This document shows, piece after piece, positions 5,812 to 29,800 of a DNA stretch of 32,000 nt (its first letter is position 1; every line of letters begins with the position of its first letter). The stretch covers positions 1 to 32,000 of the forward strand of contig CAZMGY010000018.1 in the NCBI GenBank assembly GCA_964565945.1, written 5' to 3'. Made by a program: the position numbers and the translations under genes. The notes under the pieces were generated by a model. The model did not search any database and was not told the origin of the DNA. It saw nothing but the letters and a program-made list of their open reading frames with translations. The stretch is from an uncultured bacterium (GTDB taxonomy: Bacteria; GCA-001730085).

Positions 5812-8800
5812 TTAACAGTGAAGTGATAGCTCCATTAAGCTGGCAAAGTTGTCGTTAATCACCATTTGACGGTTGTTAATTGTTCCGTTAACAGCCGCCA
5901 TATTGCTAATACCATTGATGCCTTCGCGGAATGGACGGTACATTTCGGGGTTAAACTTCGCAGCTTCTTTGAAGAAACGATTTTTCATGTGTTCATAGTT
6001 TTTACGCTCATTCAAAGCTTGAACCAAGCTGATAAAGCTGCCTTCGTCCATTGTTCTCGCTAAGCGACGCATAAAACTGTTTTGTGGCAACACTGTGTCT
6101 AAAAAGGTTGTGAAGTCTTCGTCGGTTAAGCTCATATTAGCAGCTCCACGTGCAACAACAGCTTGAACAAAGTTATCCCAAGTGTTGGCATCCATGTTAT
6201 CACGCTCACCAGTTAAGGCTTCGTAATAATAACGGCTTTCGTAGCGATAGAGCTCGGCAAGCTGACCGCTTTCTGCACTTGCAAAACTTTCGACAACTTG
6301 AATGAAATCACCAAACATGTTGAAGTTAAAAGATTTGCTTAACATCATTGCTGTTTGAAGCACATCGTCCATGCTGCGATTGCTCATGTTATCCATTTCT
6401 CGTTTAAGTGTTTCAGATTCTTGTGCGTCACTTTCGATAGCAAAGCGATTTGCCAATCGTTGTTGATAGCCATCCCAGCCTTCTTCTAAGAGCTCTTGGC
6501 TTACCAACATAATACTTTGTCCGTTTTCCATAATGAATGTGTAAGGCTCTGATTGACCTTGAACAATCTGGTGAGGCACACCTGAATCACTGCTCCATTG
6601 TTTTAGCTTAGCTTGGTATTCTTCTAGATTGACTTGGCGACGAGCTGTTTCGGCATCTTCTTCACGCACACGTTCTTCGGCTATACGTGGAGTCTCCTCT
6701 TCTTCTTTTTCTCGAGTAGAGCGTTGCTCTTCGCTTTCAACACCTTGCTCTGCCCCTAATTTGCCATCATAGTCTTGATTGTGCTCGGCCACGAAGCTGG
6801 CATTATCTTCAAAGCCTGTGCCTAAAAGGATCGCATTGAGTTCGTGTTCCATAATCTCAAAGTGTGTTGTGATTTCATCCTGACGTCTCAGCATCGATAC
6901 AAGGTCCTTTTTAAGAATATCTTGCAGTTTTTGAATGTATTCGCTGTATTTGCCATCTTGATCTCGCAATTCTTGCACTTCAACAATCACTTTGGCAAGT
7001 TGTGTTCCCGCCACTCCACGAGATTGCGCCAGCGCTTCTAAGAAATGCTCATCATCTTTATTTGTTTTATCAAAGTAGCCATCTTGTTTCATGGCATCGG
7101 TATTTTCGAGCAAACGATTGGCCAAAGATCCGGTAATGAAAGCCTGACTCGCCTCGGTCATGCGAGTAACAGCTTGGTTAATTTGCGTTTTTTGCCCCTC
7201 TCTAACTTCGAACTCAGCCACAGCCGAAGCAAGTTCCTTCATAAGATCACAGGCTGTTAGAACTTTCTCTCCGCTCATGCTTTCGATATCTTGCCCCAAA
7301 GCTTCTAAGATGCTGATAAGCATAATAATGTAATCGGCATAAGAGCCCATTTCGACGTAGCGGCTGTCCCAAGAAAGTCCAAAATGTTCAGCATGGGTGC
7401 GACGTTGCAAATATTGTGCGACATCAACCGAAACTCCAAGCTCCTCCTTGAGGGCTTGTAAATCTAACAGTTTAACGCGACGGGCTTGTCCCTTAATAAT
7501 GCGAACCGAATCAAACACGATGTCTTTGCTGAATAGCTCACGATCTCTTACTTTCACATCCACATTATCAGATGCATCAGTGAAAGAAAGAGACCGTTTG
7601 CCTGGGTTGGCATTGCTTTGTAAATGGCTAAACGCTTGGCGATTTGCTTTATTCGAACGCACATTGTCACTTTGAACAATAGCCTCTTGAACCAATTGTT
7701 CGCTTAATTTTCCAGATTGAATGAGAACTTCAATCAAACGTTCTTCGCTGTTAATCGTTTCTTTTTCACCATTTGTATGCTCAATCACCAAACTAGGGGC
7801 TAAGCGGTTAAGTGTAATCAGATCACTCACATCATTTGTAGTAAGGTTTTGGTTAAACAAATCTCTTTTGATGATAATTACGTTTTCTGCTTTTTTGTCT
7901 TTAAGTTCATCAGAGCCTTCTTGTTTTTCTTTTTCGCCTTTTTTACGATTAATTAAGTATACGTTGTTCAAAACAATATCACTGGTGATAAATGACTCGC
8001 TATTTTGTCCGTCCGTAGCAAATTCAACTTGCAATTTTTTGCGTGTGGCGTCGCGTGTTTCTAGACCTTTACGCAGATCTTTAATAACATTTTTAACAGC
8101 AGTTTGCTCGTTTTGAGTCAGTTTAAGTCCGCGTGTTTGAAGTTCTTTTAAGAATTCATCGACACGTTGATCAAAGTTGGCTTGACTATCAGTAACAATT
8201 TGGCTTTGAACAAACTTGGCAATTTCAATCACATCTTGGTTTTCTTTGAGTCGAGCCAGTTGCGTTTTGGTATATTGACGGCGTTGCCAGAAAGTTTGGC
8301 TCTCTAGTGCTTTTTTGGCTTGAATTCTACGCATACGTTCCATATCGAAGGTTTTAGAACCATGACTCATATGAAGATCACTACGAGTGAAACCTTCGCT
8401 AAGAGTTCCTTGCATTTTTTTCCAAGACTGGCTCAAGCTAGTTAACATGCCTGGGAAGATTCCTTGGCTTTGCATAAGGCTTAAAGTTTCCCAGTCACTC
8501 TCTTGAACTTCGGCCGAAGAGTACAAGGAAATAAAGGCTTTCATAGTTGCATTGTGTTGTTGGATCGAAGTTTCGGGATTGTTAAGAGCTACTGCGCGAC
8601 GAATCATGTCGATGGTTACTTCGTTGCTACGTGTGCGCATGCGTTGTTCTTCGATGCGGCTCAAGATCGCTTGAGATTCGGCGCTACCATAACGTTGAAT
8701 AGCGGATAAGGCTGCTTCGTAAAAACTGCTCACCTCTTTGTGAGTTCCATCGTGGATATCCAACCATTCGGCGACATTTCGTGTGCCAGCTACATCTTCA

Positions 8801-11800
8801 CCCAAACCAAATCTCCCCCCTTGACCAAGCATGGTGTGAACACCATCAAGAAAATTGTAATCTTCTTTACGAGCTAAGCGAATATCGACCATCGCGGCAA
8901 GCATATTGCGACGTGATTGATCCAATGTATTGGTACGATCGCGTCCGCCAAAATCCATCAGTTTTTGCATGGTCAAAATGCTAATGTCTAAATCGTGCCC
9001 TGTGAAAGATGTAATTATGGATGCTGTGATAGCAAAACGATTGGCGTTTTTAAAGGCTTTGAGAATCTCTTCTTGTTTGTTTGCATCAGCAGCTCTAAGA
9101 GCAATTTGTTTCATCGCTTGAAGAAACTCTTGGTCACCTTGATGCATAGCTTCTTCAATTTGCTTAAGAGCAACTTCGGCTTCGGCTTGATTCATGCCGT
9201 TAAGGGCGTCCATAACTGGTTTCATAGATTGAAATTCGCTTTGAGACATTATTTCTTTCATCATTTGAAGATTCATTTTGTTCACATGGAATTTGTCACC
9301 TTGAACATTAACAGTTCGTCTAAACCATTTGTGATCGCGATTGCTTGAAAGAAGGCCTTTTCCAGAGGCTTTAGCGGCCTGAGCTAAATCATTGTATGTG
9401 TTGCGAAGTTGATTGGCTTGCAAGTCACTTAAACGGACTTTAGCTTGATGTGAGTGCTGGCCTGAAACTTTTTCAGGTAAATCTTGTTTAGGATGGACAA
9501 GGGCATTCACTAAATTACCCATTTCGGATAAACTTTGGTTTCCAGACAAAATACCACCACGAGGAGTTGAAACGGGTTTGTTAGCCGCTGCACCAATGCG
9601 TCCTGTGATTTTAACGCCTTTGGTCATTTGAATTTCTTCTTGAAGCAAGCGCAATGGTTTACGAAGCTGAGCAAGGCCATGAGCCGACAAGGCTTTATGG
9701 CTCATTTTAAGTTGTTTGACAGCACCTTGATAAGCTTTGTTTAATCCTTCAATACCACTCATTGTGTCACCACGGAGTTCGAGATTACCTTTGTCGTTGC
9801 GGTTGAACTTGGCGAGCAACTTACGAATTTCATGCCGAGCTTTGGCAGAAAGATTAGGCTGGCTCATCATGTCACGCAAGATATCTTTAGGATATTCGCT
9901 GATTATACCGTTAAGTGTGTTGTATGTAGCTGAAAGAACTTTTTTACGCTCGTTTTGCAGTAAAGCCTTTCCAAGATTATGGACATTCACGTCGCCCATA
10001 TCTTTTAGATTAGAGACCATGCCGTCCGAGAGAAGCATGAGACGAATGTGGTTTTTGTTAGTGAATTTACGGTCACGACCATATGCCTGTCCAAAATCTG
10101 AAAATGTGGTGTCTTTGCCCATAAAGTTAAGGTAACTTACTGGTGCAGTTTCGAGGGCCCCAATATCCCAACCAAAACGGAGAGATTTATTGGTTAGAAT
10201 AGCGACTTGTGACACATCATAACGAGCTAAATCATTGGCGTTTAAGCCGATTTTAGCGAGTAAATCACTCTTGTTATCTTTGGACTGAACCACATCCATA
10301 ATGGCTTCCACAATTTTCTTAGAATCGACGCCTGGAATAGAATTATTATTAACCGATCCAACGGTTACACGTTCCCCATTGCTCTTGAGGCGATATATAT
10401 TGATTTGACCTGTTTCGTTGCCATATTCCAAGACCAATTGATCTTGTGTTTTCCACAAGTCTTTGATGGCACCTGTTTGCTGCATGGCTTGCATGAGTTG
10501 AAGTTTAGCTATTAGAACCCGCTGAACCAGAACTTGTTGCGTATTCGAAGCAGTGTACATATCTGGCTGTGTGCTCACATTGATTGTAAGAACAGTGTGA
10601 AGCATTTGAGCGACTTCGACTTCTTTGAGTTGATCACCCTTTTGACGCAGAGCATTGATTCCAATGGTTAAATTACGAATGGCAACATCTTTTTGAGCCT
10701 CGATGCGGCTAAATCCACTGGCATCTTCTCTGGTTAACATAAATTCACGCATGCTAGTAACCGCGGCAGCTAAGGCTTCTTTTTGTTGAGTGATTTGGAA
10801 TTGTTGCAAATTGGAAGCCACTGATTCGAAGGTTGCGGCAAGTTTTTCAACGCCGACAAGTTCACGTTTTTGAATTTCGTAGGTAGCCAATGTTTCCAAG
10901 CGTGGTGTGATCATTTCGAACAATTGAAGAACACCTGTTTGTTGTTGAGCCATCAAATACTGTTTAAAATGAACCGACCAGAGTTCGAAAGACATTTTTT
11001 GGCCATCGCTCCAGTTGGCTTCCACGCGCTCCAATTTGGCTTCCACGCGCTCCAATTTGGCTTCGAGTTTGGCTAAATCAGCGCCACTTTCTTTGCCTTC
11101 GGCTACTTTTTTCTTTATTTCACTCACTTGTCGTTGTAAGTCGTTTTTGACCGTATCTTTAAATGTTGTCGAATAAACTTCTTTATAAAACGATTGCAGT
11201 TGATCGTAAAGAGCTTGACCGTTACGACCACACATTTGAGGTCCCATTGTGTGCAGGTGAGACATAACTAAACTGATATCCTGACCAAACATTTTGACCA
11301 ATGTTCCCAAGGCACTACGTGATTCAGCACCAAGACCAAGTTGAGCGATTTTGGATACAGGAAGAGTGGTACCAGTCATGTATTGCACGTTTCCACCACC
11401 GCGTTGAATCACATTGATCAAACCAGTAACTGTCGATTGCAAGGAATCAGGCGCGGTTTTAACAAGATCTAAGCGCTGACCGTAAACCATATCAGTGTAT
11501 TTTTGCATAACTTCACGGTAAAAATTCTTATCATTTTTGCCTGTTCGAGTTTGCCGAATTCGCATGCTGCGGTAATCTTTGAGCCATTGGTGAGCTTGAG
11601 CACGAACAAACAGTTCTTGAACCACGCTTTGAGGTCCTGCCTGACGTGATTCATGATGCGATGGTAAGTGTCCGCGATCTTGGTACCTCGCCACCATGGC
11701 ATCGTATTCTTTGCTTGTTAATTCAAGTTTTTCTGCTTGAATCATTCGTTGAAATTCAGCATTCGAAGAGCCCCCTTTACGGTTATATTCGTTGAGACTC

Positions 11801-14800
11801 TCTTGTTGAATCAATGAAATAACATTGGTAAAAGCAGCCTCTTTAAGTTTAACCACATTCTCACCCATCTTACCAAATTGAATGGTTAATTCACGTTGTC
11901 CAATGCGTGGTTTGATCACCACTTCAAGAACACCAGCCAAATAAGGATCACTATGTTGTTGATCGATGCTGATAATATCTTCGCGTGAAGGTTTGATTAG
12001 GGTACGCTCGGCGCGGTCATTGGTGTAAGAGCTGATTTTTTCTCCGCGACGAATCACTTCGTAGTGACTACCCAATTGTTGGCTTAGAGCTTGAGACAAT
12101 GCAAAGAATCCTTTTTGAGTCACCCTGGTGCTGCGTCCACCAAAGGATTCATATATGCCCAAAACACTATCTTTTAAAAAGTACTTTAAGCTTCCCACTA
12201 TGCCGTTGGAATTAGGATTTTTGGCGTTGATAAAACTATCCAATTTTTTGGCTTTAAGCAGATCGCTACGCCCAATAGCTTTCAAGCCTTGGCCTGCCAC
12301 ATCGCTAGCCCAGAATTCGGCTTTAAAGTAAGTTCCCGTGCCAGCGATGGTTGATGTTTTCACAAAACGCTGAGTAAACTCTGAATTGATAAAATCTTTA
12401 ACCATCGCTGTGGCTTCGCCAAATTTGAGCGCTGTGCTGTATTCTTGTTTGCCCGGACGTGTGCTCAACTGATGCTGAAAGGTTCCTTTGGCAGGATCAA
12501 GGATAAGATAAGGCTTAGGACCAAAATCCATGACCGCGCCATTTTTGCTAATTTCGACACGAACAATTTTATTAGGATCAGCTGTGAAGCTAATTAAGAA
12601 TTCATCTTTTCCCTCGCGGAAACGGAAAATGTTTCCCCCATTCTCTTTCTCTTGGATACGAGCCAATTCTTGAGCCATGGGCAATTCGAGAGCAGTTGTA
12701 AAATCACGAGCTGTGTTGGCAGCCGTTTTGGCAGATTGTGATAAAGGATTTTCGGCTTTAAAACCAGAAATCAGGGCAGGAATATCACCAATCATATGTG
12801 CTTCGTCGACCAACATGCTAGATTTCTTAAATAAGAGCTGACCAATAGCCGCTTTCACGGGTTCTTTGCCTGTTTGACCTGCCAAGTGAACTTGCTCTAA
12901 AGACATGGCATCAGCAAACACAATCAACCCGCCTTGAGCTTGAGCGCGTTGAATTACTTTAAGGGTCGTTGCAGCTTCGCTTCCGTAGAGGCTAGCTCCA
13001 TCTAAACGAACATAAGTGACCATATTACCTTTTTCACGACCAGTTAACTGAGCTAAATAGGTATTACTGTTCAGTGTATCCATAAATGTGTGCCCATTCA
13101 CCATCATATCGGCCACCGCTTGATTGAGCTTACCGCTATCGGCAAAAAAGGAAATAGAGGTGTTAACGGATTCACCAAACAGGAGTGCACTGATAGCGGT
13201 GAAAATTGGAGAAATGGTTTTACTTTTACCAATACCAGTTACCGCATCGAGCAAATAAGACTCTTTGCCTAACATGCGGAAGGTTTCTTTAAGGCCATTG
13301 ATCCGTGTAGTTATGTCTCCTAAGAAAGTGTATTTGTAGTGACTGATAAAAGTCTTAACTACTTCGAGCATAACCTCGACCATAGGCAATTCTGCGGCAA
13401 AGGCCTGATCACTAGTGGCTTTGGATTTGGCAAATTGTAAGTAAGCTTTACGGACCAAGTTGAATTTTTCGCCACCTTTAAGAAGGACTTGACCTTCGGC
13501 ATCTTTGGTAAAAATCTTGTCTGCTATGCTTTTTTTCACTTTCATAGCTTCTTCGGCTTGATCAAGAAATTCGAAGAATGTAAAAGAGACCTTGCGAGCC
13601 ATTTGCTGGGTTGCCTGTCCAGCTAAGCTTAACTCACCCACTGTTGAGCGTAGTAATTGAGCCCATTGTTCAAATTGATTGCTTAGGCGTTGATCTCCAT
13701 CCAAAGACTCTTGCTCAGCTTTCGAAGAAGCTTGCATTTTGGCATTCACATCACGGCTAAAAGAGTCTTTGTCGCCCTTGGAATCCTTTTTGACAGAGCC
13801 TTGCACCTGCGCATCAGTCTGACGAATCATTTGAATCGCAACACTGCGGGCACTGTCTGTCATCATACTAAGATTGTCTTTAGCCAATTGTAATGAAGCA
13901 ATGTCGCGTTCAAGCAGGCTCACGCGCTCTTTAGCTTCGCGAATATTATCTTGGAGAGTTTTCTTCGTATCGGCAGAAACTTGACCCATTTGCATAGTTT
14001 TGGTGAAGGTTTCTTCGTGACGGGTCACGTGCTTTTCCGCTCCTTGCAGTTTTTTCGATTGCGCTTGAATTGACTTGTCTATCCAGCCTTTGAGCTTGGC
14101 AGGTTCGTTTTGGAGGTATTCGAGCAGGCTTTGTTTCAATTCCTTCATATCCTGAAAGGGTTTAGCCAGAGCTGCATCATCGCTACTTTGATCCTTTTTT
14201 AACGTAGTTTCTGCATTCATTTGAGAAAGCATTTCTTTCAACAACATAGGGTCTTGTAATATCCTTTGAACAAAAGCTTCTTGCCCTTGAAAACGGCGAG
14301 TATGTTCGATGGCTTGTTGCATGATTAACATATCGACCAAGAATTTGTTGCGTGCGTAAAGTGCTGGGTTGCTTTGAGCATCAACGTTAGCCGAACGCCC
14401 CTCGAAAAGGGCGCTATAGATGGTTTTGTAAAAGGCTTCGATGGCTTCGTTGTTTTTGCGACCGACGTAGGTGTTGATTAAATCAAAAACAGTGTGCGCA
14501 TTGATCTCCAAATTTTCGGCTAATTCTTTATTAAGCGAGTCTTGCACTTTTTGCAAGCCCACATCCTTAAGCAGAAGGGCAGATATAGCCTGAATATCTT
14601 TGAGGCTCCAGCCCGACTCTTTGAGTTCTTTAAGAGCTGTTGTCACACCCTCTGTTTGTCCTTGGAAGGCTTGCGTAACAACATCAACTTCAACTTGCTT
14701 CTTGGTATTACCCTCTTTGCCCCTTTCCTTAAGAGGGCTAGGCCATAGGTCTTTAAGTTCTTTATGTAGTTCTTTGATCAGAGCCTCCACAGAAGGTTCT

Positions 14801-17800
14801 CTTTGACTGCTCGCTTTTAACGCAGCTTTCATGAATTTCTCTTTGAATGTGTCCCCAAACTTCTGTGAAGCACCTTGTATATCTTTAACTGCAGCATCCA
14901 CAGCTTGTTCCAAAGAAACTAAACTATCAAATCCTTTTTGATGATTGTATTGTTCTTTGAGAGCTTCTTGTCCTTTAGTTTTAATGGCTAACTCAGGCAG
15001 ATACACGCGTTGAATGATCTTATCTTGTATCGTACGATCCAAGCTGTAGAGGCTTTCGAGAGCATTTTCGTAACTTTGCCTTTGTGAAGCGCCACGCATT
15101 TGATATGCAAAAAAACTCCCCGCAACAAAGAAGGCAATTCCGACAAATGGTGTGACTAAGCTAGCGAGCAATCCAGTGACAAACAAAACGGGAAGCATAA
15201 TCGCGATGAAGCGACCACGGCCACCATTGCCAAAGATGTATTGGGCAACACTTTTCTTGCTGCCCTTGGTTTTAAATTCTTTCTCAAATTCAACTTGAGT
15301 TGCGATCCCCATGTTTTTGTATAAAACATTAGGTGTAAAGCTATCTTTAACTTCACCTGTACGAGTCACACGCACTTGATAGGCTATTGTGAAGGCATAA
15401 AGAATAGATTTGAGCGTTTCCGGCTTACTATCGTAACGGGTAAGCAATCGTTGCACGATCTGAGCCATGGCTTTTACATCGGCCGATGAGGTTAACAAGT
15501 GACCAATGATTTTGGTATTTTGAGCATAGGCCTGTGAGGTTTGGCCTGGATACGACATGCGGGCAGCCATAAGGTCAAGCATTTGCTCTTTGGTGAGATT
15601 TCCACGGATCATTTGATTCAAATGAGTTAGGAGTTGAGGTAATGTGAGCCCTGTTTGGCTCAATAATTTAGCAACATAAGGCAGCTGTTGCAAATCTTGA
15701 AGGTTTTGGGCCGCGACTTTGTCGGTCACAAGATCATCATCAGAAGCAGCAGGTGTGACCAAGGCATTAAAGGCATGATTATAAAGACCAATTACAAGAT
15801 GTGTCGCTAAATAACCAGTGACCACAGCAACCGTTAATGCGACAAAAGGTCCAGCCAAAGATAAAGCTGCGAAGGCAACTCCAAAGCCTGGGAGAGCACC
15901 AAGAATAGCGACTGTGGCGATAATACCAATCAGAGTGATCAAGCTATTTTTAACAGGAAGATAGCTGTTAAATTTAGCTTTAACATAGTTAAAGATCCCT
16001 CTGTAACCACTTGGAAAATCATCTCTTTCGACTCGATTGTTTTGCACTTCACGAGAACGTTGTCCATTAAAAGTTCTCACTAAATCATCTTGTTTTTTTT
16101 GTTCATTGTTTTGTTGGCGAAGTTCGGCGTTGGTCTCCATCGAGCTAAGAATACCCGCTGAGTTAGAAAAATGAAAAACACCTGTTTTGTTAAGGAGCAC
16201 TTGAGAGGCAATACCAAAAGCCATTAAGAACGGCGCTGCTCCACCAAAACCCGTCACCATAGGCGCTAATAATGGTATCAGAATTCCGAGTACTGGAAGA
16301 GCAAATCCCAATGAGACAGTAAGGGCCGCCACTACCACAACTTTTTGGAAGATGCCCATTTTTTTACCTTTGGCCATTAAAGGCAACATCATTAAACCTG
16401 CCGCCAAGCCAATTCCCACGGCAGCAATAGCTGGCAAGGCGGTTCCAAATGTTCCTACAGCCACCGCAGTGGCAATGGCAACAACCAAGGCGACTTTAAG
16501 AGATTTTTGGAATGCAGGATCACGGAATTTATTGGCAATCGAAGCACCCCAATACTGAAGCGTGTTGGGGGTTTGACCATGATGTTTTCTCATATAATCA
16601 ATGCGGAAGTCCATTTCATTAAAATTAGGATTATAAGGTTTCGAAGTTAATTTAATCTCTTTTTCAAATTGTAACATCGATGTTTGAGAGTGAAGTTTTA
16701 CGTCAAAAACATCTTCGAGCTGTCTTTGAACAAAGCTAGCGTACTTGGTTTGAAATTTATCGGAACGAACAGCCTCTCGAGCACCTTTTTCACCATTCAC
16801 GAGACGTAGTAAAGCTAAGGCTTCATTAGCTTTAGTGAGTGCGCGTTGAGCTTTGGAGAGCATTTCCGCCTTAGCTGCGCTTTGACCTGTCGTTTGAAGC
16901 AGATGTTGAAGCAGAGCTTCTCTTTGTTGGAGACGCATGCTAACGCCATCGGCAGTTTGCAAACTATTTTGCGAATAAGCAGCTTTCACACTGCCTTGGA
17001 TAAATTGATCCAAAACTTGACGATGAGCTGTAACTTCAATCATATCTGTACGATATTGATTTCTCATAATGCTTAAAACCATTTCTAGTTGAGCACTTCC
17101 TAAGGTTTCACCCGACAACATTTCTTTAACATTAACAGTTAACTCTTGATTGAAGGTTTTGACATGTTTCTGAATATTATTGACAGATTTTGTTGCTTGA
17201 TCCTTAAGATCCTTGATGTCTTTTGTATCAAAATATTCTGGCGAGGATTCAAGCATCTTAATAAGATCTCTCGCGATTTCCAATGGCGTGACCTCGTCTT
17301 TAGAAGCCTTCAACTTCAATTCAGCCAATGTGACTTTCTCTTGTTCAACCTGCTTAATACGAATGTCGAGTGCTGCATTCATTTTTTCCAGTAACTTGCT
17401 GTTTAGCTGAACTAAATTCTCATCCAGAGATCCTCTTTGGCTTGATTGAAAGAGGCTCTTCATGTGTTCAAGATGCGAATCAATACTTTTTTGCTGAGCC
17501 TCGGGACTTTTTAAAACAGGCTTATTTTTGACAACTTCAAGTCGTTGAATTTCTGATCTTAAACCAGAGCTAACAAAACCTTCGATTTTATTGGCCCGAC
17601 TTTCAAGAGCGTCTTTGGTTTTGTTCATCTCACTGATGACTGGTTCCCAATGTTCATTAGCTCGTCCAGCCTGAGCGATCTCTTTTTTGGCCGCCATTTT
17701 ATCGGTTTGAGAAGATTGAGCGCTTCCTGTAATAAGCTTAAGTTTCTCGATGCGAAAATTTTGATGCTTACGATTACCTTCATGTTGGGCAATTTGATTT

Positions 17801-20800
17801 GCCACTCTTGCTGCTTGTGAGCGAACTCCGCGCGCCTCGGCCACGTAGCTTTCTTGTAGTAATTCATGGGCCATTTGTATCAATTCATGACCAGTCAGAC
17901 CAGGCCGATCGGCTCCCTGAAGAACCTGGATGCTTTGTTTAAGGTTGGTTAAACGGACGTTGATTTCGGCAATACCAACTACAGCGGGCTTCTCAGATTG
18001 GAAGATTTGGCCATTAGGTCCGATTTTGGCAGGAATGGCATCTCGTCCCACTTTGAGTTCGACCATTTGTTTATCAAGGTTGCGAATTTCATTTTTCAAT
18101 TGACGTTGCTGCGGTGCTGTTAAGTTTGTAGCAGTTTGAAGCTTCTCTTGTTTATTGATTTTATCTAGAGATAGACTCTCAACACGATCACTCAATTGCT
18201 GTGTTTGTTGCTCAAGTTTTACTTTTTCGCCAAGAAGCTTGGTCTTGTGAGCCGTTAAGTTAGTTTGTAATCTCAATACATCGTTGGGCACTGTCAAATG
18301 ATTGGTCATGCGATCGATCTCTTGATTAGCACGTTCTTGGGCATGATCCAGGGCCTTTTCTCCTCCTGGTTGGGCCTTTTTTAGAATAGTGGCTACACTT
18401 TCCTCGATGGATCTGAGTGTGGCAGCATCCAAATCGGATCCTTGTTGGGTCGGAGTGTTTCCTGTAGTAACAACAACGTTGATTCCTTCTTGAGCATCAC
18501 TAAAAGACTTTTCAGTATTGAGTACATCCTGATAGCGATCAGAAATTCGTTCTTTGGCAACGGTTTCTTTCATTTTTATAATGCTTTGTTGTGTATGAAA
18601 AATATCACCTCTTGAAGCTCCAGTGTACACTTGAGTTAACTGATAAATTTCGCGATTGGACGTGCCAATGTCTTGAGATAGTTGTTTAGCTTCGGATTTA
18701 GCTGTATGAATCTCTGCTTGCAGTTCTTGCTGACGTGTGACGGATGGTTTTCGACTATGTTCTTTGCGATAGGATCGTCGACCTTTGTTGCTTGCCAATC
18801 CAGCGGTTTCTTTTTGCAATTGGCTTTCGAGCTGGCGAATCTTCTCTTGTTTTTGTGTCAATTTGTTTTGCATCTGGTTGATAAGACTTCCAGAGGTCTT
18901 GGCTGACACCTCTCCGTTTTCGGCTTTGAATCCAAGGCGATCGAGAACCTCTGCAGCATCTTTAGCTATCTGTTGTCCTTCCTCTCGAGATTTTTTCATG
19001 GTATGAGTGGCTTCACGGAAAGCCGTATATTGAGAAGTTTCAACATTTTGATACGTCGCTTTGGAAATGGTCGCTTGCAAATCTTGATCTGCGGCTGTTT
19101 CGGTAATTTGATGAGGAAGTGGTGATAAAATACGCGTTTCGACCGCTTTAACAGCTGCGTTCAAGTTTTCAGAAAATTCCTGAAATTTGTGTTTGTTACT
19201 GGTTTGTAGGTTGGAAATACTCGACATGTTTTCATGAAATTCACGGCGCATGTCTTTCATAGCAGTGAAATTAGTAGGTTCATTTTTCCAAAAATCATTA
19301 AGAAATGTCTTAGATCCACCTGGAACGCCTTCGACATTAGCTTTAAGATTAGTGTTATGCACTGCCAATTTATCGGCTTGTTTATTTTTGCCTTGTTTTC
19401 TAAGTTCTGCAATTTTTGTAATATTGGTCGCAATTTTTGTTTGAAGCTCATCAACACGGCTAGCTTGATCATAGCGTTGACGATGTTGCTCCATACGATC
19501 AAGATAGCTACCTTTGCTTTGATCAGAGTATTTGTCGTGACGAGCTTGAAGTTCTGCTTTATTTTCTTTAGCCTTTTCGAGTTCTGCACGTTTTTTTGAT
19601 GTTGTTCTGGCGGCTTTCTTACCTGACGCATCGCTTTTGCCTGTTGCTGCAGCATCAGGTATAGAAGGTTGAGATCCCGTAGTGGGAGGTTTTGTGATTG
19701 TCGTTCCTGGAGTCACTGGCGTGGCAGTGCTTATAGGTACAGGTGTTGTTGTTGCTGTTGAAGCATCTTTACCTGCCTTCGCATCCTCTTTGCTTTCTTG
19801 TTTTTTGATTTTAGCTTCACGCTTTTGAATACGTTTTTCGACTTTGGTTAACCTAATACCACCTAGCTCTGTTTCGATGCTTTCAAGCTTACGCTGTTCT
19901 TTGTTCAGCTCAGACTGTTGACGAACCACACTTTTTTTGTAGTGTTTCACATCACGATTGGCCTCATTATCTATACGTTTCACAACAACATCTACTTGGC
20001 TAGCTGTCATACTTGCTGTTATTTCTGTCGAAAGAAGTTTTTCTGCATGAGCGCATTTTTCCTGCAATTTTATAATATTTTGTTGAGTTTGAGCCAATTC
20101 ATCAGACAAATCTTTTTTTTCGGAACGAAGTTCATTGAGTTCTTTGGCCACTCGCGATATTTCTTTTTTGGCTTCCTTAAGAGTTTTTTCGTGTTCTTTA
20201 CGCTTCTTTCGAATAGCCGTTTTTTGACCTTCTAATGTGATTTCTTTGGTCTCAATCTCGCGAATACGAGTTTCAATCTCTTGCGCACGAGATTCTTTTT
20301 TAGCAATATCAGTTTGATTCTGACGGTAATCAGATAGGGCTTCTAGATCTTTTATACGCTCCCCTAAAAGGCGACGATCTTCTTTGATTTCTTTTTCGCG
20401 CGAGGCAACCGACTCTTGCTGCTGTGCTTGATCAATTTGAAGTTTCTTACTGCGTGAACGGAATAAGTTAACGACTCCTTGTCCGATTTTCTGAAGACCA
20501 AAACCAAGCAACCCAATCAGAAACAAGACAGGCGCCACTCCTGTAATGGTATCGAAAATACCATGAGCAACCCGCTTGCCTGTGCCAAAGCCATCATGTC
20601 GTCTTACATAACTACCAAAACCCGGTAATTCGCGCGAAAATTTCATAAAGCCAGAACCAAAACCATTTTTAGTGGAAACAGGTTTGAGTTTCATCCCGGC
20701 TTTCTTGCGAAGATCATTTAGTTGATGTTGCATTTGTTTGGTATTGTGACCACTTTGATCGAGGCGTTGAATTTTGATTTCCAGTTTCTGGATTGCGGCC

Positions 20801-23800
20801 TCACCTCTATCTTTTGATATTTTTTGAAAGTTTTGTTGAGCAGAATCCAACTCTTGTTGAGTATTGCGTACTTCGGCACCTAAACGTTCTTTACCAATAA
20901 TAGTCGCTATTGGCGCAGCAACTTGACCATTGCTCATCAATTGGCCCGCGGTTTTCATAAACATCGCTTGAGCTTGTTCATCTGTGATTGTCTTATCAGA
21001 CGCTTTCACCGCTTGAACAAACTCTTGTTGCACTTGATTACGTTCCGTTTTCCTTGCTCCGTCGCGCATAGCTAACTGAACGTCAGTAAAGACAGCCTCT
21101 GTTTCGGACTTAGATAACTCATTTTTACCTTGACCCTTAGCGCGTCCTTTGGAAATTGTATTGGCCACGATACGTACGCGAGCTTCGGTAACCATGCTCT
21201 TAGTGGCGCCAGGCGGTAATGATTCACCATTCGTGATAGCATTTTCAACAGCCTTTTGGCGTGCCTTGGCAACTCGACCTTCTATAAATTGAGCTTTAGA
21301 CATATCATAGTTACTCATATGAGTCGAAAGAATGCCAAGCGTGCCCACCTGAAGAATTGTCCCAATCACTTGTCCCGCAATACCACTGTTCATAAGGCGT
21401 GCATAGGACCCTGTCAGCTGGAAACCTCCTCCATGGACAGTTAGATTAACGGTTCCAAAACCTTCGATAGCAATATCATTGGTTTTGTGTTTAGAAAGAC
21501 CAAGCTTGGCTTCTTGAACTTTAATAACATCCTCTTCTTTGATTGCTCCGCCAGCTGTGGTACCACTCACAGCAGCAAGAACATTAGAACGAAGATTGTC
21601 GTAAGACGATTTTGGCTTGTTGCGAATTTTGTTGAATAAAGATGTGATGCTGATTGCGTCTAAACCTTTTTTAAAGGATTGCAAGCCGCGATCGACCTTA
21701 TCTTGTTTGAGAACTCCTTTTTGAACACTTGGCTTTCCATCGACATATTTAAAGTGTAATTTAGCGCTGACACCAGCACCGTCGGTTACTTTGACCGTAG
21801 CGTAATTATCAGTGGATACTGTTTGTCCAAATCGAGCCATGGCTGAATCAAGACCTAAAACAAATCGTTCACCAAGCGTAAATTTGCTGTTTTGGATAAA
21901 TTTTTCAATTTTTTTAACGTCACCACTTCTGACCAATGTCTCATAGACTTGTTTCTCTCTAATACTCAAATTGCTTGTACCAGAAACATCCACTTTTTTA
22001 ACCAGGGCTATTTCAGCTTCGGTGATTTTATCTTTCTTCTGCAATTCCTCTTTTTGTTTTTGTATTTCAGCGGCTTTATTCCTAGCGGATTGCAAACCAA
22101 AGAACGAAGACGCCGATTCAAAGAATTTTTTCGTTTTAACTTTAGCCTTTGATCCACCAAACGCGCCAGCGATGTTGGAGACAATCCCTCCAATGACCTT
22201 TTTAAAGACAATCTTAAAAACTCCGCCCGCAATGTTTTTGAACAAAAGTTTAGTAAATTTCATGGGCAAACTAATCAAGTACATCACAAAATCTTGTAAC
22301 TTGCTAGCAATAATAGCAGCTAACTGAACCACAGCGCGGACTATCCTAACCACAATGGCTAGGACTTTACCAATGATACCTGCGTATTTAAGGACCTTTT
22401 CGAGAATTTTAAGGATCTTGGCGACACCCTTAAGCATCGATGACAACAATTTACTTCCTTTGCTCTTCATCGTAAAAGAGATGATTTCCCCAGCAGCTCC
22501 ACCCAGATTTTGTTTGCCGATTTGACCAGCACCACCTAGACCAAGGTTAACGTCTCTTTTGGCTTTGCGTTGAACCCGTGATGTTCGTCCAATCGAATCA
22601 TATTGTTCAGCTGTTTTAATACCATTCTTTTTCTCATGGATGGCCAATGGCCCTAGAAGGAATACGGCGCCTAAAAGGCCAAAGAAAAACTTCTCAAACC
22701 CGCTCATACCTTCCGTATCTCCAGTGTAAAGCCGCGAAATCTCATTGAGGAGATACCCCTCTTCGGCGCCAATGATTTTTTCAATTACACCTAAGAACAT
22801 AGCCAACAGACCGGTCACACCAGCATAAGGATCATTAACCATCGAAAAGATCATTGTAGGCATCATAATCATAAATTGGACAATGGCGAGCATCATGCGA
22901 GCGGCAAAGGCGAAGAAGTTGATGCGGGCGTTTCGAGCGGAAGATTTCTTCTTGGTTTCTTTGTTATCCCCGTCATCATTACCATCTTTATCCCAAGGAG
23001 ATGTGAATATTTTCTTCCAAGCATCTTCATCATCGCCACTCGTAACCATCATCATAACAACCGCTAGGATAAGCAAAATAATTAGCATTACAAGGGCAAA
23101 TGTTCCCAAGGTCACAATCGACAAGGCAATGAAAGCAATGAACAATGCAGCACCCACTAAACCCGAAATAAGTGCCGACTGCTCGTCTTTGTTCATAATA
23201 GCTTCGAGTTTTTCGAAGACTGCTTGAAGCTCGGCCCCAAGAAAGGCTGATTTTTTCTCAGAACGGCGCGCTCCTTTCACATCCACATGATCCTCAACGG
23301 CACCGATCCACTTTTTAATCAAATAAAGCAAACCGTCACGAATTGTTTTGTAAATCTCTTCGAGCACTTTTAAAATAAGCTTAAGTCCTTGGAGCAAGTA
23401 GATGGTAACGTCAATCAAAGCTTTTTGTATTTCATACAATGGATTCGGCACAGAAAAAAGACCTAGCTCAAGGCTCGTTCCAATGCGTTTGAGGTCTTCT
23501 TTTTCTTCCTCTAGCGCTTCAATAGCCGATTCGAGACCACCCCGCGTTTCTTCAAGCAAGGTCACCACCGGCATAAATAAAACATTTATTAAAGCCTTTA
23601 ATAATACTGGTAAAAAAAGTTCGATATTTTCGAACGCTTGACCAATAGTGTTGACCAATGGTCCAATAAAGCCCTGGATCCCACCAACAAAACTGGCGTG
23701 CATTTCTTGATTCACAATACTGTATTGTTGTTGTTTGAAGGAGCCTCCATATGTAATGACAAGGCTATCTGCAATACTAATTCCCAAAGAAATAATATCA

Positions 23801-26800
23801 CCAAGGACAGGAATATGATCTAAAACATTAAACGATGAGGATAATTTGCCCCAAGTGTCAATCATACGTGTACGACGACGGCGACCATGAGTCATAATGC
23901 TGTTATCGCTATAAATCAAGGAATCACGATCCGTACCTGTGAAACTGTCCACTTGAAAAATATCATACCCGGCATTATTAAAATCAGTGAAATAAAAGTA
24001 GTCGGTTTCCACGATGCCGTATTCATATGTTGAACGCATCGTTTGATAGCCATAGTTGTTGCGAGCATCAAAAATTTGCTGAACACGTGTTTTCTTTTTA
24101 AGTGGTTTACCACCTTCTATCGTTGTGAACTTTTTCATAAAAATGGCGTTACCAGCTCGGTCATAAATTACTCCTGGTTGGTGCCATGGCTCATCAATTT
24201 TTTGAATATCACCTTCGGCTCCACCAGGGAGATCTTTCTCTGATACTTTATATTTGAGCGTACGGTTGACTTTTCCATTTTTGAATTGGTTCGTTTTATC
24301 TAATGGAGGGATATTTTTATAATAATTACGATCCTTTATTTGCTCTTTAACCGAACCCTTCCAGTTGAAATCTGGATCATAATGCCAGGCCCCATGAAAA
24401 CTGCGGTTATGTCCGCCATCGGCCGAAGGTGCCAGCGAATCTTCCATCCAACGATAAAGTTGTACTTGCTTGCTCACAGAATCTAACATGTAGTACATAT
24501 AAGCTTTATTAATGGTTGTACGGTTATCATAGTCAAAATCCCAGTATGGCACGCTTGTACGATCAAAAACTTCGGGTGACCATAAGTTTTTCTTTTCGAC
24601 AAACGTTTTGATCAAGTTGAACACTTGTTTGCTTTTGCTATAAAACGTCGCGCCTAAAAGATCTTTTTGAGCTTGTGTAAAATCCCCTTCAACTAGAAAT
24701 TGATAGCTATCGGTTGTTCTAAAAATCTTGTTGTACAAGGCCTCTTCGCCTGCAAGATTAAGAATTTTTTTAAAAGAAGCTTTAGTTGCAGCATGAAAAA
24801 AGTCTGTCACCACATATTCATCAATGGTATTCTTTTGGATATATCCCGCGTTGGCCAAAGCTGTTAATTGGGCGCTAGTAAAATCACTTTCGGAGTTGGA
24901 TGCAGCCAATGCAGCATCTTGAGGATTTAAGTAACCATCTTTTTTATCGTAAAAGACGCGTTTCACTTCACCATTGGCATCAAGATATTCTTTAGTTTTA
25001 AGAATTTTAAACAACTCAACTGCCTGTGCCTCTGTAAGTCCCAAAGACAGCAAGTTGCGTGCATCAATTAGAGCTCCTCCGATGGCCTCATCATAGCGAA
25101 GGGCTGAAGTTCCTGAGTTATTGCCATGCGAAGAAGTTTCACGTTCCCCTTTAAAGCTTTCTTCGACAAAGTGAGCTTCTTTACGTGTATAAAATGCAGC
25201 GGGATTTCCCTCGGAATAAGAGCTTCTGACGTTGCTATAAGCTTCTCCCGAAGAATCATTTTCTGTGCGTAACAGACCAATACCAGGATTAAGAATAGCT
25301 GTTTCATCGCTGGAAAGCACATTGATACTTTCAACCTCTTCATTATACCACCCAGATTCTTCATCTTTTTTCGGGGGCGTGTCATTCAAAAATCCATAAA
25401 CAGGCCCTTCAAGTGCATTAAAGCGCTCTTGAGAAGTATTAATATTAAAGAAATCATTCAAGTGCGCCAAAGTCCCTGTGGTTGATTTTTCGGTGAAGCC
25501 ATGCTTGAACCATTCGTAATGGGTTTCTTTGCGAGAAGTTGAGGTAACCTTACCATCTGGCGAGCGATTGTACTTATTAAAGGTTTTTTGCATGCCATGT
25601 TCATCGTAGGTTGAATCCTTAAGATACTCGCGGGTGTAATTGAAATAATCGTTGTACCGAAAGAATTCATGCCCTTCTTTCCCGCTTGCAACTGCATCAA
25701 ATTTATTAACTGTAATGTAAAAAGCTTCATCATCACGAGTAAAACCATAGTTTCCATCAGGTTGAATATACTTAAGTTCCGTCAAATAGCGAGGTTCAAC
25801 ACCGCTATATTGACTGGTGATAAAATCTCCCAGACGTCCTTTTTGTATTGAAAACTGAGAACTTCCACTAATCAAGGCTGAAAGTGCCGCAGGATCGTAT
25901 TTCCCATGTTTTTCCAAATCTTTTTTAAGAATAAGCACCTTACCTGTTTTTGACAAGTTAAAGCTAGACTCTGGCGGCATTGCGTTCAACACAGTCTGAT
26001 TAAGCTGAGCGCTGCCTTTACTGCGAATTTTGTAGAAAAGCTCTCCATTTTCCCATTCTTCGGTGAATCCGATGTCGCGACCTAGGCGAATATTGTAAAT
26101 ATTTTGAAATGCTTGCCAAGGTGTTGAGCCACGATTGTAATTATCAATTTGCGCATAAGTAGAGCGATCGCTACTTGTGATATTGCCAAAGAAGTCACGC
26201 CCATGAATTTGATAATCATTCATGATGTATTTAAGCACCAGCTTGGGATTACCGTTTTCATCATTTAGATCATCTGCTCCTTGCTCTTGATTGTAGATTT
26301 GTTGAAGCACGGTATCCCCAGTTAAGCTTTTTTTAATATTCTTGAAGTTTTGACCATATTTTTCAAGGGCTTGACCTGCTATCATAAGTCTTGCTCGTTT
26401 AGAGCCAGCTGTCAAAAAATGCGTGTCGTATATGCTCTTTAATTTACCTGATAATGAGTCATATTTGGCCTTGCTAGTAGCCGCTTTGAAAAGAGACCTA
26501 ATACTTGTATCTATGCTCGATTCACCTATGCTCTCCGATTGCAACAAGTTTTTAATACTTTTGTAATCATCCCAACCAAAAATTTGTTCAACTTTTTTAT
26601 ACTGGTTCTGACTAACTAAACCGCCATTTTCATCGATCTTATCTTCAAGGTAATACCATTCATGGTGACCTTCTTTGTACGCACTCACTTCTCCCCAAAA
26701 TGAATGATCATAGTCCACTTGAGCGGTTCCTTTGCGAGCCTTCTTAAAAGCCTCTCCTTCACGGATCGTTAGTTTAAGATGAGGACGAGCAAAACTCGTC

Positions 26801-29800
26801 ATGCCAAAATTCTCACCTTCCAAAGCGAATTCAAGACGTTGTTTAATAGAAAATGTTCCTGGAACAAACTCTTTACCTGGCTCCATCGCTTCTTCTTTGA
26901 GATCAGCTAAGGAATTAATATTGCTCATATCAATCACATCTTCAACTTTTCTATAGTTAAGCTTGGTGTCGAAGTAATACTTAATATCTTGTTCCATCGT
27001 GCTTTTGGCTTCACCATTCAAATGATTGATAGACGTTTCAAAAATTTTGGATGCTTTTTGGCCTTGATAATTAGTCTTATGTCTCACAGTAGTGGTTTTA
27101 TCATCTCTAAAAGATATCGGAGAACCTTGGGCATGATCAACTTTAAAGCCGTTAGCTACACGTGTGAAAGATTGAACACGACCGAGAGGGTCTTTGATTT
27201 GATCATAAATCCGATTATTTTGATAATTTTGGACCTCATTGTAAGAATTGAACTGATGGCTAGCATTGATCATTTGTTTCATATGATCCATACTGAGTAC
27301 TTTGTCAGGTGTCTTGAAACCTTTGTGGAAATTATAGATTTGTTCCTTATAATTTTCTTTTTTTTGTCCTGTTTTAATTTCGTAATTAATATCCTCCATC
27401 AAGTTTTGAGTACCAGTTTGTCCTTGACGTGCAATTAAGCGTGCTTTCAAGATCAAGTCATTGGTGGTTGTTAATTCGTGGATTTTTGTTGTTTTAAGAA
27501 GGCTGCCTTCATAAGTATTTTCCACATAGTTGATGTCTTTGGTTTTTTGGTAGCCGAGCTGGGAGGCCCTATCAACTAAAGCAGAATATTGTGTATCTAG
27601 GTTCTTATAAACATTATCAGTAGTGACCATACGGTTCAATAGTTGACCCCCAACCAAATAATTTGCATCCATTGTACGAACAATGATTTGCTGGGTTCCA
27701 TCTGAGCGATTGAAGTTAGTGGCGACTAAATTGTCTGTGGATTCAATATAACCAATATTGCTAAGAAGTTCTTCGTTTAAGGTTTCCCAAATTTGTTGTT
27801 CCTTACCTGCAAAACGAGCGTCTAGGTTTAGTTCTTCGGATCCATAAAGTAATTCAAGCGACTTACGCACTTCTCCACTACTTTCGATATAGCCTTTGTC
27901 TAGCAAGTCATCCCAAAGAGCATTAACATCGGATTGACTCATGAATGGGAGAAATTTCTTTTTACTTGTTTTTTTGCTAATAAAATCATCGTAATCGGTG
28001 TAAGCGCGAATATCTGATAAGTGATTTTTCCATACTTTTTCATACTCTTTGAACGACAGTTCATGGCCATATTGGTTGAATTTAGTATTTTTCCTTAAAG
28101 TCGTTTTTTTCGTGATCGATCCATTGTGATCAATCGTACTATTATTGGTTTGCGAAATAAGAGTTTTTCCATTCAGATCATGCATCAAGTTGGTGCGTCG
28201 CACCGATTTGATTTCGTAAGGTTTAGACATATCATCTGCAGAAAACTTTGTGATCATTTCTTGAGTGAATAAATCACGACCAGCTATGTTTTTAACAATT
28301 CCCATACTATTGCGGACTTCTTTAGCTACAATCACTTCATCGACATAATTTTCTTTAAGTACAGTGAACTCGAGAGCTTGCTGCTTATCGTTAAATGTAT
28401 AGTTTTCGGTTGTTTCACGTGTATGCATCGACTTGGCGCTAAAGTCAATGGCAGCAAGACTTGTGTGATTGAATTGGCCAAAGGTTTCGTAAACAAGATC
28501 TTGGTAGCGATTATCAATTTGTTTAGACATTAAGGCTTGTCCAACACCATAATCCATATTCGTTTGTGTGTAATTGATGAATGGATCACCCTTGCGCTGA
28601 GTGGCACGAATCGATTGTGTTTCTTTGCGGTTGGCGTTATACTGGATGTAAGCGATTACTGTTTTTTCAATATGGTCATCGGCTAGCCCTGCTTGAATAA
28701 TTACTTTATTTTTTTCAGAAAAACGCTTCAAACCATGGTGATTATGATCTGGAATATCGCTATCATAAATAGAATAATAGCTATTGTTAGTTGTTGTTTT
28801 GAAATAGTGGTTAGCTTTGGCAATATTTTTATTCGTTGTAGGGTCTTTTTCGATAACAAAGTCTTTTTCAACAGATTTAATAAGAAAATTTCCTTCGAAT
28901 TGATTATTTTTAACAACTTTACTATTAAGGCTAAAAGATGCATCATCGCCACCTGCGCCAATATCACTCAAGTTGATATAAAGTTCGGTGTCTGTTTGAA
29001 TAGGACGACCGCGACCATCAAAACCAGTCATTTGATCCACTTGGTAAGAGCGACGATTGTTAGCCCTAAGAGCATTGTTAACGCTGGCATAAGCTGCTGT
29101 ATCGTCAACATACTCAAAGGTATCTTGGTTCAAGATTTCCAAACTGTTAGATGCAATAGCAGCACTATACATATAGGAATCAAAACGTTTTTGCTGAATC
29201 CATCCCAAGGAAGGATGTCTTTGATAAGTGATCTTATCGCTCACCCGGTTGACATTGACGGTTTTGCCATCGGACTCACGAACAATGGCAACTGCTTCCT
29301 GAAGGTCGGTTGTTTGTCTAAAGCTTAATTTACGGTTGAATTTATCATAGATAATGTCATGTTCCGAACGTACCACTTCGGAATAACTGTCGGCGCGCTT
29401 TAAGTCAATAAAATGCTCTTTGTTTTTACGTATTTTCGATAAAGTCACTTGTTTGGCCACACGACCATAAGAGTCATATTTGAACTGATTTTCTTCCACT
29501 TTTTTCAGTTTGTTACTAAACATTTCTCTTTGAGCAACCGTCGTTTTGCTTCCATCAAAATGACGAACTTCGTCGCGAACTTTATAATTAGCAAAATAAG
29601 CGCCTAAATACGCTCTGTTTTGAGTGCGTCTCTCGACAATTACATCACCGGCATCCAATGTTCCTGGACGGTAAACATTAACAATCTCACCAATTTTGAG
29701 TCCATTGATATTATGGTTAAGGACTGCTTCTTCATGAGATGTTTTCACCATAAGATCGTCGTATTTGGTACGCGTTTCTAGAGCTGCTGCTCCATTAAAA

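Follow-up and report, generated by a model that had tools for sequence, protein, structure and literature searches.

A Putative Membrane-Embedded Core in an 18,600-Residue Protein of an Uncultured Bacterium

Proteins of more than 10,000 residues are common in some uncultured lineages, and none of them has been placed in a membrane experimentally. In the Omnitrophota, full-length giant genes are reported to encode many transmembrane (TM) regions, together with SecA_DEAD domains that are for the most part divergent (West-Roberts et al., 2023, bioRxiv 10.1101/2023.11.21.568195). In a set of 916 long proteins, 94% were found to have TM helices or a signal peptide and 39% to have both, with a median of 16 helices at lengths of at least 10,000 amino acids (aa) and a TM density of ~2% of residues (Nielsen and Lui, 2026, bioRxiv 10.64898/2026.06.07.730766). 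The gene discussed here encodes a protein of this kind of size. It lies on contig CAZMGY010000018.1 of an uncultured bacterium, and the first 32,000 nucleotides (nt) of this contig, hereafter the window, contain the 3′ portion of a single open reading frame (ORF) that runs on the minus strand from nt 5812 to past nt 32000.

The stretch under study comprises window residues 2700-5640 (window residue i begins at nt 31998-3(i-1)), equivalent to residues ~12,600-15,540 of the ~18,624-residue product. This stretch is probably the membrane-embedded core of a single giant protein of the envelope, seated in the cytoplasmic membrane of the producer itself, where it would link an exported part to a cytoplasmic coil and motor. 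The original prediction, made from the letters of the window, had left a choice between a chain with several anchor points in the producer's envelope and one inserted into a target membrane. A Sec-type signal peptide, segments of stop-transfer grade, mostly K/R-rich flanks, and a P-loop ATPase favor the first of these.

Hydrophobic Segments of the Giant Protein

On the contig the ORF occupies nt 5815-61695 (18,627 codons), ~30 kb of which lie beyond the window, and the source genome (1.6 Mb in 39 contigs, 42% GC) is 99.2% complete. The probable start is a GTG at codon 4, which is preceded at five bases by the Shine-Dalgarno sequence AGGAGAGG. The N-terminus is a Sec-type signal peptide, featuring a KK..R n-region, a 15-aa h-region, and a site between LAFA and QQ, and the N-terminus of the ortholog described below is of the same kind. 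The N-terminal part of ~12,600 residues is YD-like and acidic (net charge -252), and the net charge is positive in every segment from module A, the first of the membrane clusters, to cluster E, the last.

Hydrophobic segments were sought with a Kyte-Doolittle scan (19-residue windows, threshold >1.6), as well as a scan for uncharged runs of at least 17 aa (free of D, E, K, R, H, Q, and N) with positive hydropathy. Within all 18,627 residues, strong segments occur only at window residues 2729-5632 (nt 15103-23814). Nine uncharged runs of at least 17 aa were found, the longest of 48 aa, compared with a mean of 1.3 and a longest run of 31 aa in 300 shuffles. The best 19-residue segments were then scored for insertion free energy (dG) on a Hessa-type additive scale, with scale values after Hessa (2005). 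Ten segments have a dG of 1.5 or lower (A1, A2, A3, B, C1, C2, C3, D1, D2, and E1), and values of 2.4-4.9 are seen for E2, the helix at residue 3212, A0, C4, A4, A5, and a run that had been described as weaker, against a protein-wide mean of 22.1.

On re-translation, every hydrophobic run and every peptide quoted in the original prediction was found where it had been placed. The hydrophilic spacers, given there as ~500 and ~1,300 aa, measure ~530 and ~1,330 aa, and the bilobed character of the runs, with two lobes joined by a short G/P turn, is borne out by five uncharged runs of 36-51 aa whose mean Kyte-Doolittle hydropathy is 1.9-2.4. Other details are revised by the same data. In the ortholog, the weaker run bears Lys and Arg and is shortened by a 5-aa deletion, and so it is probably a helix buried within the soluble A-B domain and not the membrane helix it was taken for. 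D, previously counted as a double hairpin, reads as one hairpin with a long hydrophobic turn. The Gly/Lys-rich peptide IAGGVFKIVFKKVIGG..., put forward as an amphipathic helix, has a low helical hydrophobic moment (muH) of 0.26-0.30. The true cationic amphipathic stretch lies directly before it at window residues 3182-3234 (muH 0.56-0.67), and is the sole place among the 18,627 aa with cationic (net charge of at least +3), hydrophobic windows within the top 1% of muH. These helices are conserved in the ortholog and probably rest on the surface of the membrane or insert into it only marginally. The coordinates of all features are collected in Table 1.

TABLE 1. Predicted features of the giant ORF within the window, listed in the direction of translation after the ORF itself.
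Feature	Window nt	Strand	Basis or remark
Giant ORF, window part	5812..32000	-	Last 8,728 codons and stop codon
THGRRRR in the last YD-like unit, at the exported/membrane junction	23872..23892	-	T-H-G-R-x-R-R in the four lineages covering the junction
A-2, A-1, A0: weak or marginal hydrophobic helices	23551..23814	-	Hydropathy and dG
A1-A2: 48-aa uncharged bilobed hairpin, TLG turn	23035..23178	-	Scans, dG
A3: predicted membrane helix	22834..22923	-	K/R-rich stretch before, conserved NDPYAG turn after
A4: short helix and invariant motif	22708..22827	-	Five-lineage alignment
A5: short 17-aa hydrophobic helix, FFFGLLGAVFLLGPLAI	22639..22689	-	
Cationic amphipathic helices (SKLLSSMLKGVAKILKILEKVLKY...VRIVRAVVQLAAIIASKL)	22297..22455	-	muH
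Gly/Lys-rich hydrophobic segment (KNIAGGVFKIVFKKVIGGIVSNIAGAFGG)	22153..22239	-	Quoted in the original prediction
Weaker run	21316..21396	-	dG 4.9
B: single 20-aa predicted membrane helix	20491..20550	-	C-terminal flank K/R-rich (RSRSKK)
B-C spacer: K/E/Q-rich, helical, ~1,300 aa	16519..20451	-	Net charge +35
C1-C2: hairpin, 41 aa, GTFGTALP turn	16372..16494	-	K/R-rich on both sides
C3-C4: hairpin, 51 aa	16189..16341	-	Joined to C1-C2 by a KGKKMGIFQK loop
D: hairpin, 55 aa, hydrophobic 12-aa turn between two prolines	15781..15945	-	
E: hairpin, 36 aa, TP turn	15103..15210	-	Last membrane element ahead of the ATPase
Putative SF2-type ATPase: Walker A TGIGKSKT (13216-13239) and DEAH (12796-12807)	12796..13239	-	Invariant in four lineages

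Conservation of Module A and the ATPase

This is a genuine, conserved gene, and the ORF is very unlikely to be an artefact of assembly or annotation. Among 40 sampled relatives, a single genome matches, and it carries a colinear ortholog of 18,258 codons that is 42.5% identical and free of stops. The ortholog lies on contig MDLB01000105.1 of the bryozoan-associated "PVC group bacterium (ex Bugula neritina AB1) AB1-3", where PVC stands for Planctomycetes-Verrucomicrobia-Chlamydiae. This record appears to be the AB1_div bin, a 1.9-Mb genome related to candidate division NPL-UPA2 within the PVC superphylum (Miller et al., 2016, PMC5041132). The GTDB phylum holds only two other species, and its only other genome, G002, has no module A. 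In the ortholog, every hydrophobic cluster keeps its place. The B-C spacer is the least conserved and most length-variable part of the protein (12-29% identity, with up to 66% gaps), and the best conserved 300-aa bin of the whole protein (window residues 3002-3301, 67% identity) falls inside the first cluster.

A HMMER search with window residues 2700-3850 against 1.84 billion representative proteins returned seven matches, three of them long. The long matches are P0004 (a Hainich groundwater contig; locus L007), P0006 (a frameshifted 57-kb long-read contig), and P0007 (GenBank MBU0650551.1; locus L010), and all three are pieces of giant genes, the last being a 4.3-kb fragment that ends inside module A. 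In loci L007 and L006 the order of elements is the same as in the window and the ortholog: YD..GR repeats, the T-H-G-R-x-R-R motif, a bilobed hairpin of 49-66 residues, an NDPxxxIxG turn, the IEKIxGxEEGYL...I.....GDTEG motif, a short helix, cationic amphipathic helices, and between one and four more uncharged runs, 29-58 residues long. An ATPase with Walker A (TGIGKS[KS]T) and DE[AV]H follows 500-900 residues further downstream. The order recurs in L010 as well, over the part that this fragment covers. At or beside the position of the Gly/Lys-rich segment, these relatives carry a true hairpin or membrane helix (a 53-aa hairpin in L007 and a 32-aa run just upstream in L006). The giant frame of L007 contains one in-frame TGA (locus nt 2934-2936) and, just after the DEAH motif, a TAA (nt 14394-14396) on a contig of 5x coverage; these stops could be sequencing error, a pseudogene, or recoding. 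When genome and metagenome contigs were scanned with the alignment of module A, nothing came up besides the ortholog and the Hainich contig. Homologous-protein searches with regions 2700-3300 and 6180-6700 and with the C-E piece gave no matches, in a length range that excluded full-length relatives of 18,000 residues.

Module A covers ~400-570 aa and consists of a 48-aa hairpin, three to four more helices, an acidic and glycine-rich loop motif, and cationic amphipathic helices. The hairpin A1-A2, which contains the ISGLVGAALF...MMMV peptide quoted in the original prediction, is the most hydrophobic segment of the protein, with a dG of -2.0 for A1 and -6.3 for A2. All relatives have an equivalent of 49-66 aa. 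In contrast to most of those of the later hairpins, its flanks are acidic (17% K/R and 23% D/E over three lineages), and AlphaFold2 places a helix break at the A1-A2 turn in a model of low confidence. Upstream of the hairpin, A0 (LFLPVLLKALINVLFMPVV) has a dG of 3.5 and a conserved GG..GF.G motif, and is a possible membrane crossing. The loop motif at A4 reads IEKIxGxEEGYLxxxIxxxxxGDTEG, with E3073, G3077, E3080, G3081, Y3082, I3087, G3093, and G3097 invariant. Across five lineages, module A features 16 invariant columns, and its invariant residues are acidic or glycine. E3073 closes the short helix A4 and is followed by the invariant EEGY and GDTEG. This site is the most constrained of the 18,600-residue protein. 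The acidic, glycine-rich motif has no match in Pfam or the PDB.

The Walker A and DEAH motifs stand ~620 aa after hairpin E and point to a putative ATPase of the superfamily 2 (SF2) type. Profiles built from the two orthologs find distant relatives through this ATPase, with E-values of 7.6e-34 and 1.1e-19. Profiles of the A-B domain, the coil, the C-E hairpins, and the pre-ATPase region gave no such match. Module A is itself detectable in distant relatives at 26-30% identity. Since module A and the ATPase alone are detectable between distant lineages, constraint on sequence acts on these two cores, and what is kept of the later hairpins is their architecture only. The C-E hairpins, kept in position and not in sequence, would thus serve as generic anchors or staples.

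Neither core could be assigned to a known family. For module A, the A-B domain, and the C-E region, searches of Pfam, PHROGs, and NCBIfam gave nothing above noise; type IV secretion, the route of the Dot/Icm effectors named in the original prediction, was not searched for. The sub-threshold hydrophobic noise included Patched SSD, EI24, and FliL, as well as DUF6594 in four of five members at an E-value of 0.006. A profile search of PDB sequences found no match for module A, and another with the N-lobe of the ATPase found none for that domain, which likewise has no Pfam SecA_DEAD, DEAD, or ResIII match. By phmmer, the TM pieces have no paralogs in the source genome.

The same genome encodes a second giant ORF of similar layout (9,756 codons, G000 contig C12:37875-67142, plus strand), the last 11.6 kb of which are covered by locus L011. 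Its signal peptide shares FIATSMD with that of the main giant gene, bilobed hairpins of 51 and 38 aa occur at residues 5980-6170 of its product, and a Walker A motif (PTGFGKTN, residue 7329) and IVDEIH (residue 7455) follow. It has no phmmer similarity to the main giant protein, and hhalign gives a 72.7% probability to the start of the main ATPase. A sub-threshold Pfam DEAD match was also recorded for this ORF (E-value 2.7e-4).

The giant ORF is very poor in cysteine, with 7 Cys in 18,627 codons (0.04%) compared with 1.06% in the ORFs of the genome of at least 300 aa. Cysteine-accessibility mapping would therefore be straightforward. Six other ORFs of at least 2,000 aa are likewise Cys-poor (0.0-0.26%), and together the seven make up 8.5% of the genome. 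The neighbors of the giant gene are housekeeping genes, with sbcDC downstream and peroxiredoxin, riboflavin genes, ftsY, and nusB upstream. No type II secretion, pilus, or other secretion genes adjoin it. The gene ftsY, which encodes the signal recognition particle (SRP) receptor, lies ~5 kb upstream on the strand of the giant gene (G000:C18:61500-71296, locus nt 6313-7212, minus strand). Its closeness is probably coincidental, though SRP targeting is what such a protein would need.

Membrane Topology and Alternative Readings

In the favored arrangement, the acidic YD-like N-terminal ~12,600 residues would be exported via Sec, and the first very hydrophobic segments of module A would act as stop-transfer anchors. 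From what is established on stop transfer and SRP targeting, segments with the dG values seen here, which reach -6.3 in A2 and are at or below 1.5 in ten segments, are too hydrophobic to pass SecYEG. An odd set of crossings would lie within A to B, with B, the sole unpaired crossing, as the final one. The remaining ~6,000 residues would be cytoplasmic, comprising the variable 1,300-aa helical spacer and then the conserved SF2 P-loop ATPase, and four helical hairpins (C1C2, C3C4, D, and E) with cytoplasmic ends would pin this C-terminal part to the inner leaflet. As a guess, module A and the ATPase may work as a unit in which ATP hydrolysis is coupled to export, processing, or movement of the outer part.

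The side on which the hairpin ends lie is suggested by charge. According to the positive-inside rule, K/R-rich flanks of membrane segments face the cytoplasm. The 15-aa flanks of C, D, and E and their equivalents have 18-27% K/R and 3-7% D/E, as against 12.7% and 13.6% protein-wide, and the hairpin turns are uncharged. Flanks with at least three K/R and at most one D/E account for 5 of 8 here, 6 of 8 in the ortholog, and 4 of 6 in L007, against a background of 12%. By this rule, the two ends of each of the hairpins C, D, and E would be cytoplasmic. Each hairpin would thus start and finish on one face of the membrane, so that a cytoplasmic position is most likely for the coil of 1,300 aa, the inter-hairpin loops, and the ATPase alike. 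The earlier picture of a repeatedly threaded chain, with loops of more than 1,000 aa on alternating sides, gives way to one of hairpins with their ends on a single side. With the ATPase motifs taken as a marker of the cytoplasmic side, the positive charge from module A to E, the P-loop ATPase downstream, and the Sec signal peptide upstream agree in suggesting that everything after helix B is most likely cytoplasmic. The simplest count of spans (A1A2, A3 with A4 or A5, B, C1C2, C3C4, D, and E) would give 13, with the N-terminus out and the C-terminus in. The total would rise to 15 if A0 were included along with one more marginal helix (A4 and A5 both counted, or the helix with Arg at residue 3212).

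Several points weigh against this arrangement. The parity of module A is ambiguous, as A0, A4, A5, and the Arg-bearing helix at residue 3212 are all marginal (dG 2.6-4.5), and a count limited to the ten confident helices is even and would leave the ATPase outside. The C-terminal flank of D is acidic (one K/R, four D/E), and the two flanks of B are similar. The ~690-aa A-B region could be assigned to either side. AlphaFold2 models of module A are poor, with a pLDDT (predicted local distance difference test score) of 45.7 from the single sequence and 41.7 with a five-sequence alignment, and only their secondary structure is usable. The arrangement also does not account for how the ~1.4-MDa N-terminal part passes through, or is seated in, a diderm envelope. 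For a functional coupling of module A to the ATPase, the sole pointer is their co-conservation.

A further, rather unlikely proposal is that module A and the SF2 ATPase, the only parts whose sequence is kept in all four lineages that allow a look at both, constitute an undescribed membrane machine fused in cis to its own megadalton passenger. If this were true, ATP hydrolysis at the stapled motor would be relayed through the E/G/Y...GDTEG module, and the machine could export, cut (at THGRxRR), extend, or retract the giant outer filament. It could instead pass other substrates along the filament to a host or prey cell.

In a doubtful alternative, the chain is cleaved at or near THGRxRR, and module A, the hairpins, and the SF2 ATPase act in trans, on newly made copies, as a dedicated SecA-like export or assembly machine for the released N-terminal part. 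The mature products would then not be one multiply anchored chain of 18,600 aa. The polybasic T-H-G-R-x-R-R stands exactly at the boundary and is kept in four lineages that are only ~26% identical, and it is again only module A and the ATPase that are conserved in sequence between distant lineages. Secretion roles have also been proposed for the SecA-like domains of giant proteins (West-Roberts et al., 2023). However, no protease domain was detected by Pfam anywhere in the protein, the Rhs-type autoprotease motif DPxGL (DP.G[LIVF]) occurs nowhere in its 18,627 aa, Pfam gives no SecA_DEAD for the ATPase, no secretion genes are adjacent, and there is no evidence of cleavage. The motif itself can be read in two ways. 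It fits the minimal R-x-[KR]-R pattern of dibasic proteases (RRRR, RRRR, RLRR, and RVRR in the four lineages), and it also coincides with the G-R-[VL] of the YD repeat, which is plain consensus. THGRxRR is thus a candidate site only, and cleavage there is unproven. The lack of DPxGL, together with the lack of a type VI secretion system (T6SS) sheath gene in the genome, also led to the rejection of a reading of the C-terminal part as Rhs cargo.

Delivery of module A, the hairpins, or both into the membrane of a host or prey cell is improbable. Such a protein would resemble Inc proteins, translocators of the type III secretion system (T3SS), or alpha-helical pore formers of the colicin or diphtheria T-domain type. 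The bilobed 36-51-aa hairpins would suit this role, as would the small genome of 1.6 Mb, the bryozoan-associated PVC bacterium that carries the ortholog, and the conserved R-x-R-R ahead of module A. Module A is a very hydrophobic hairpin among amphipathic, partly cationic helices, and it is because of this resemblance in general plan to spontaneously inserting domains that the target-membrane reading is retained as a minority one. On the other hand, FHIPEP (PF00771; SctV/FlhA) has no match in the 99.2% complete genome, although it was matched in control genomes, and neither a T3SS nor a flagellar export gate is therefore present, which excludes Inc proteins and T3SS translocators. The three secretins encoded elsewhere in the genome do not indicate a T3SS. 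Membership in these families was also rejected on account of the Sec-type signal peptide and of Pfam, in which IncA is included and no match was found at an E-value of 0.1 or lower, so that the original analogy with them fails. The rest of the evidence likewise opposes delivery, as the translocon of the producer itself would halt segments of such hydrophobicity, most hairpin flanks are rich in K/R like those of proteins resident in the inner membrane, the chain continues into an ATPase, no T6SS sheath is encoded, one relative comes from groundwater, and Pfam, PHROG, NCBIfam, and PDB matches are lacking. The phage tape-measure proteins that had been named as another analogy fare no better, given the housekeeping context and the lack of a Pfam match or of any PHROG family at an E-value of 0.1 or lower for the three pieces tested.

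Finally, that the runs are buried core helices of soluble domains or that the ORF is an artefact is highly implausible; AlphaFold2 gives no confident membrane bundle and several segments are marginal, but uncharged stretches of 36-51 aa with a hydropathy of 1.9-2.4 do not occur in soluble cores, and the segments hold their positions in a second genome across 18,000 colinear residues, with the pattern repeated in independent metagenomes.

Comparison With Known Systems

The protein differs from each of the systems it calls to mind. Like phage tape-measure proteins, it is long and helical, with hydrophobic hairpins and Gly-rich segments, but it has no PHROG match and a chromosomal housekeeping context. 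With the YD-shell proteins (teneurins, Rhs, and Tc) it shares a YD-type beta-hairpin region joined to a membrane anchor and an R-x-R-R near the junction, as teneurins carry a furin site near the junction of YD and anchor. Unlike in these proteins, the YD part stands at the N-terminus and would lie outside, which inverts the orientation, and the anchor would cross the membrane several times. DPxGL is absent, and a C-terminal part of 6,000 aa is far too large for an encapsulated cargo. Inc proteins similarly feature two ~20-aa helices with a short turn and their ends on the same side, and they too are made by members of the PVC superphylum. However, they are T3SS substrates that lack a Sec signal peptide, whereas here a Sec-type signal peptide is found in a genome without FHIPEP, and five to six hairpins lie inside an 18,600-aa chain beside an ATPase. 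The membrane-associated SF2-type translocation motors SecA and ComFA differ in that the ATPase described here is fused in cis to a membrane module and a megadalton exported part, and has no detectable match to SecA families or PDB chains.

The closest likeness is to the giant proteins of the Omnitrophota ("Dockerin-type"/Archaeovorin; "SP+TM", that is, with signal peptide and TM helices), and it is a likeness of architecture as given in published descriptions. In both, a small genome encodes a single ORF of more than 10,000 aa with a signal peptide, a long N-terminal part free of TM segments, and TM clusters toward the C-terminus. These clusters are followed in the Omnitrophota by a very divergent SecA_DEAD-like ATPase and here by a putative one of SF2 type. 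The number of helices here (about 13-16, of which 10 are confident and ~6 marginal) and the TM density (~1.5-2%) are also similar. The differences are that the present protein comes from a different, tiny PVC lineage, has a YD-like N-terminal part, and gives no Pfam SecA_DEAD match, and that adjacent secretion or pilus genes, frequent and not obligatory in the Omnitrophota, are missing.

Giant proteins that combine a signal peptide and TM helices with divergent SF2/SecA-like ATPases are thus already known from the Omnitrophota. Newly described here are the conserved module A, which is without a described counterpart, the pattern of staples with both ends inside, and the co-conservation of module A with the ATPase. 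The case is a compact and testable one, with an ortholog and three distant relatives to compare, only ~13-15 helices, two conserved cores to be set against non-conserved staples, and almost no cysteine. It also extends the architecture of signal peptide, TM helices, and putative SF2 ATPase from the Omnitrophota to an invertebrate-associated PVC lineage. The second, unrelated-looking protein of 9,756 aa with the same layout suggests that this is a general building plan for megadalton envelope proteins and not a curiosity of one phylum.

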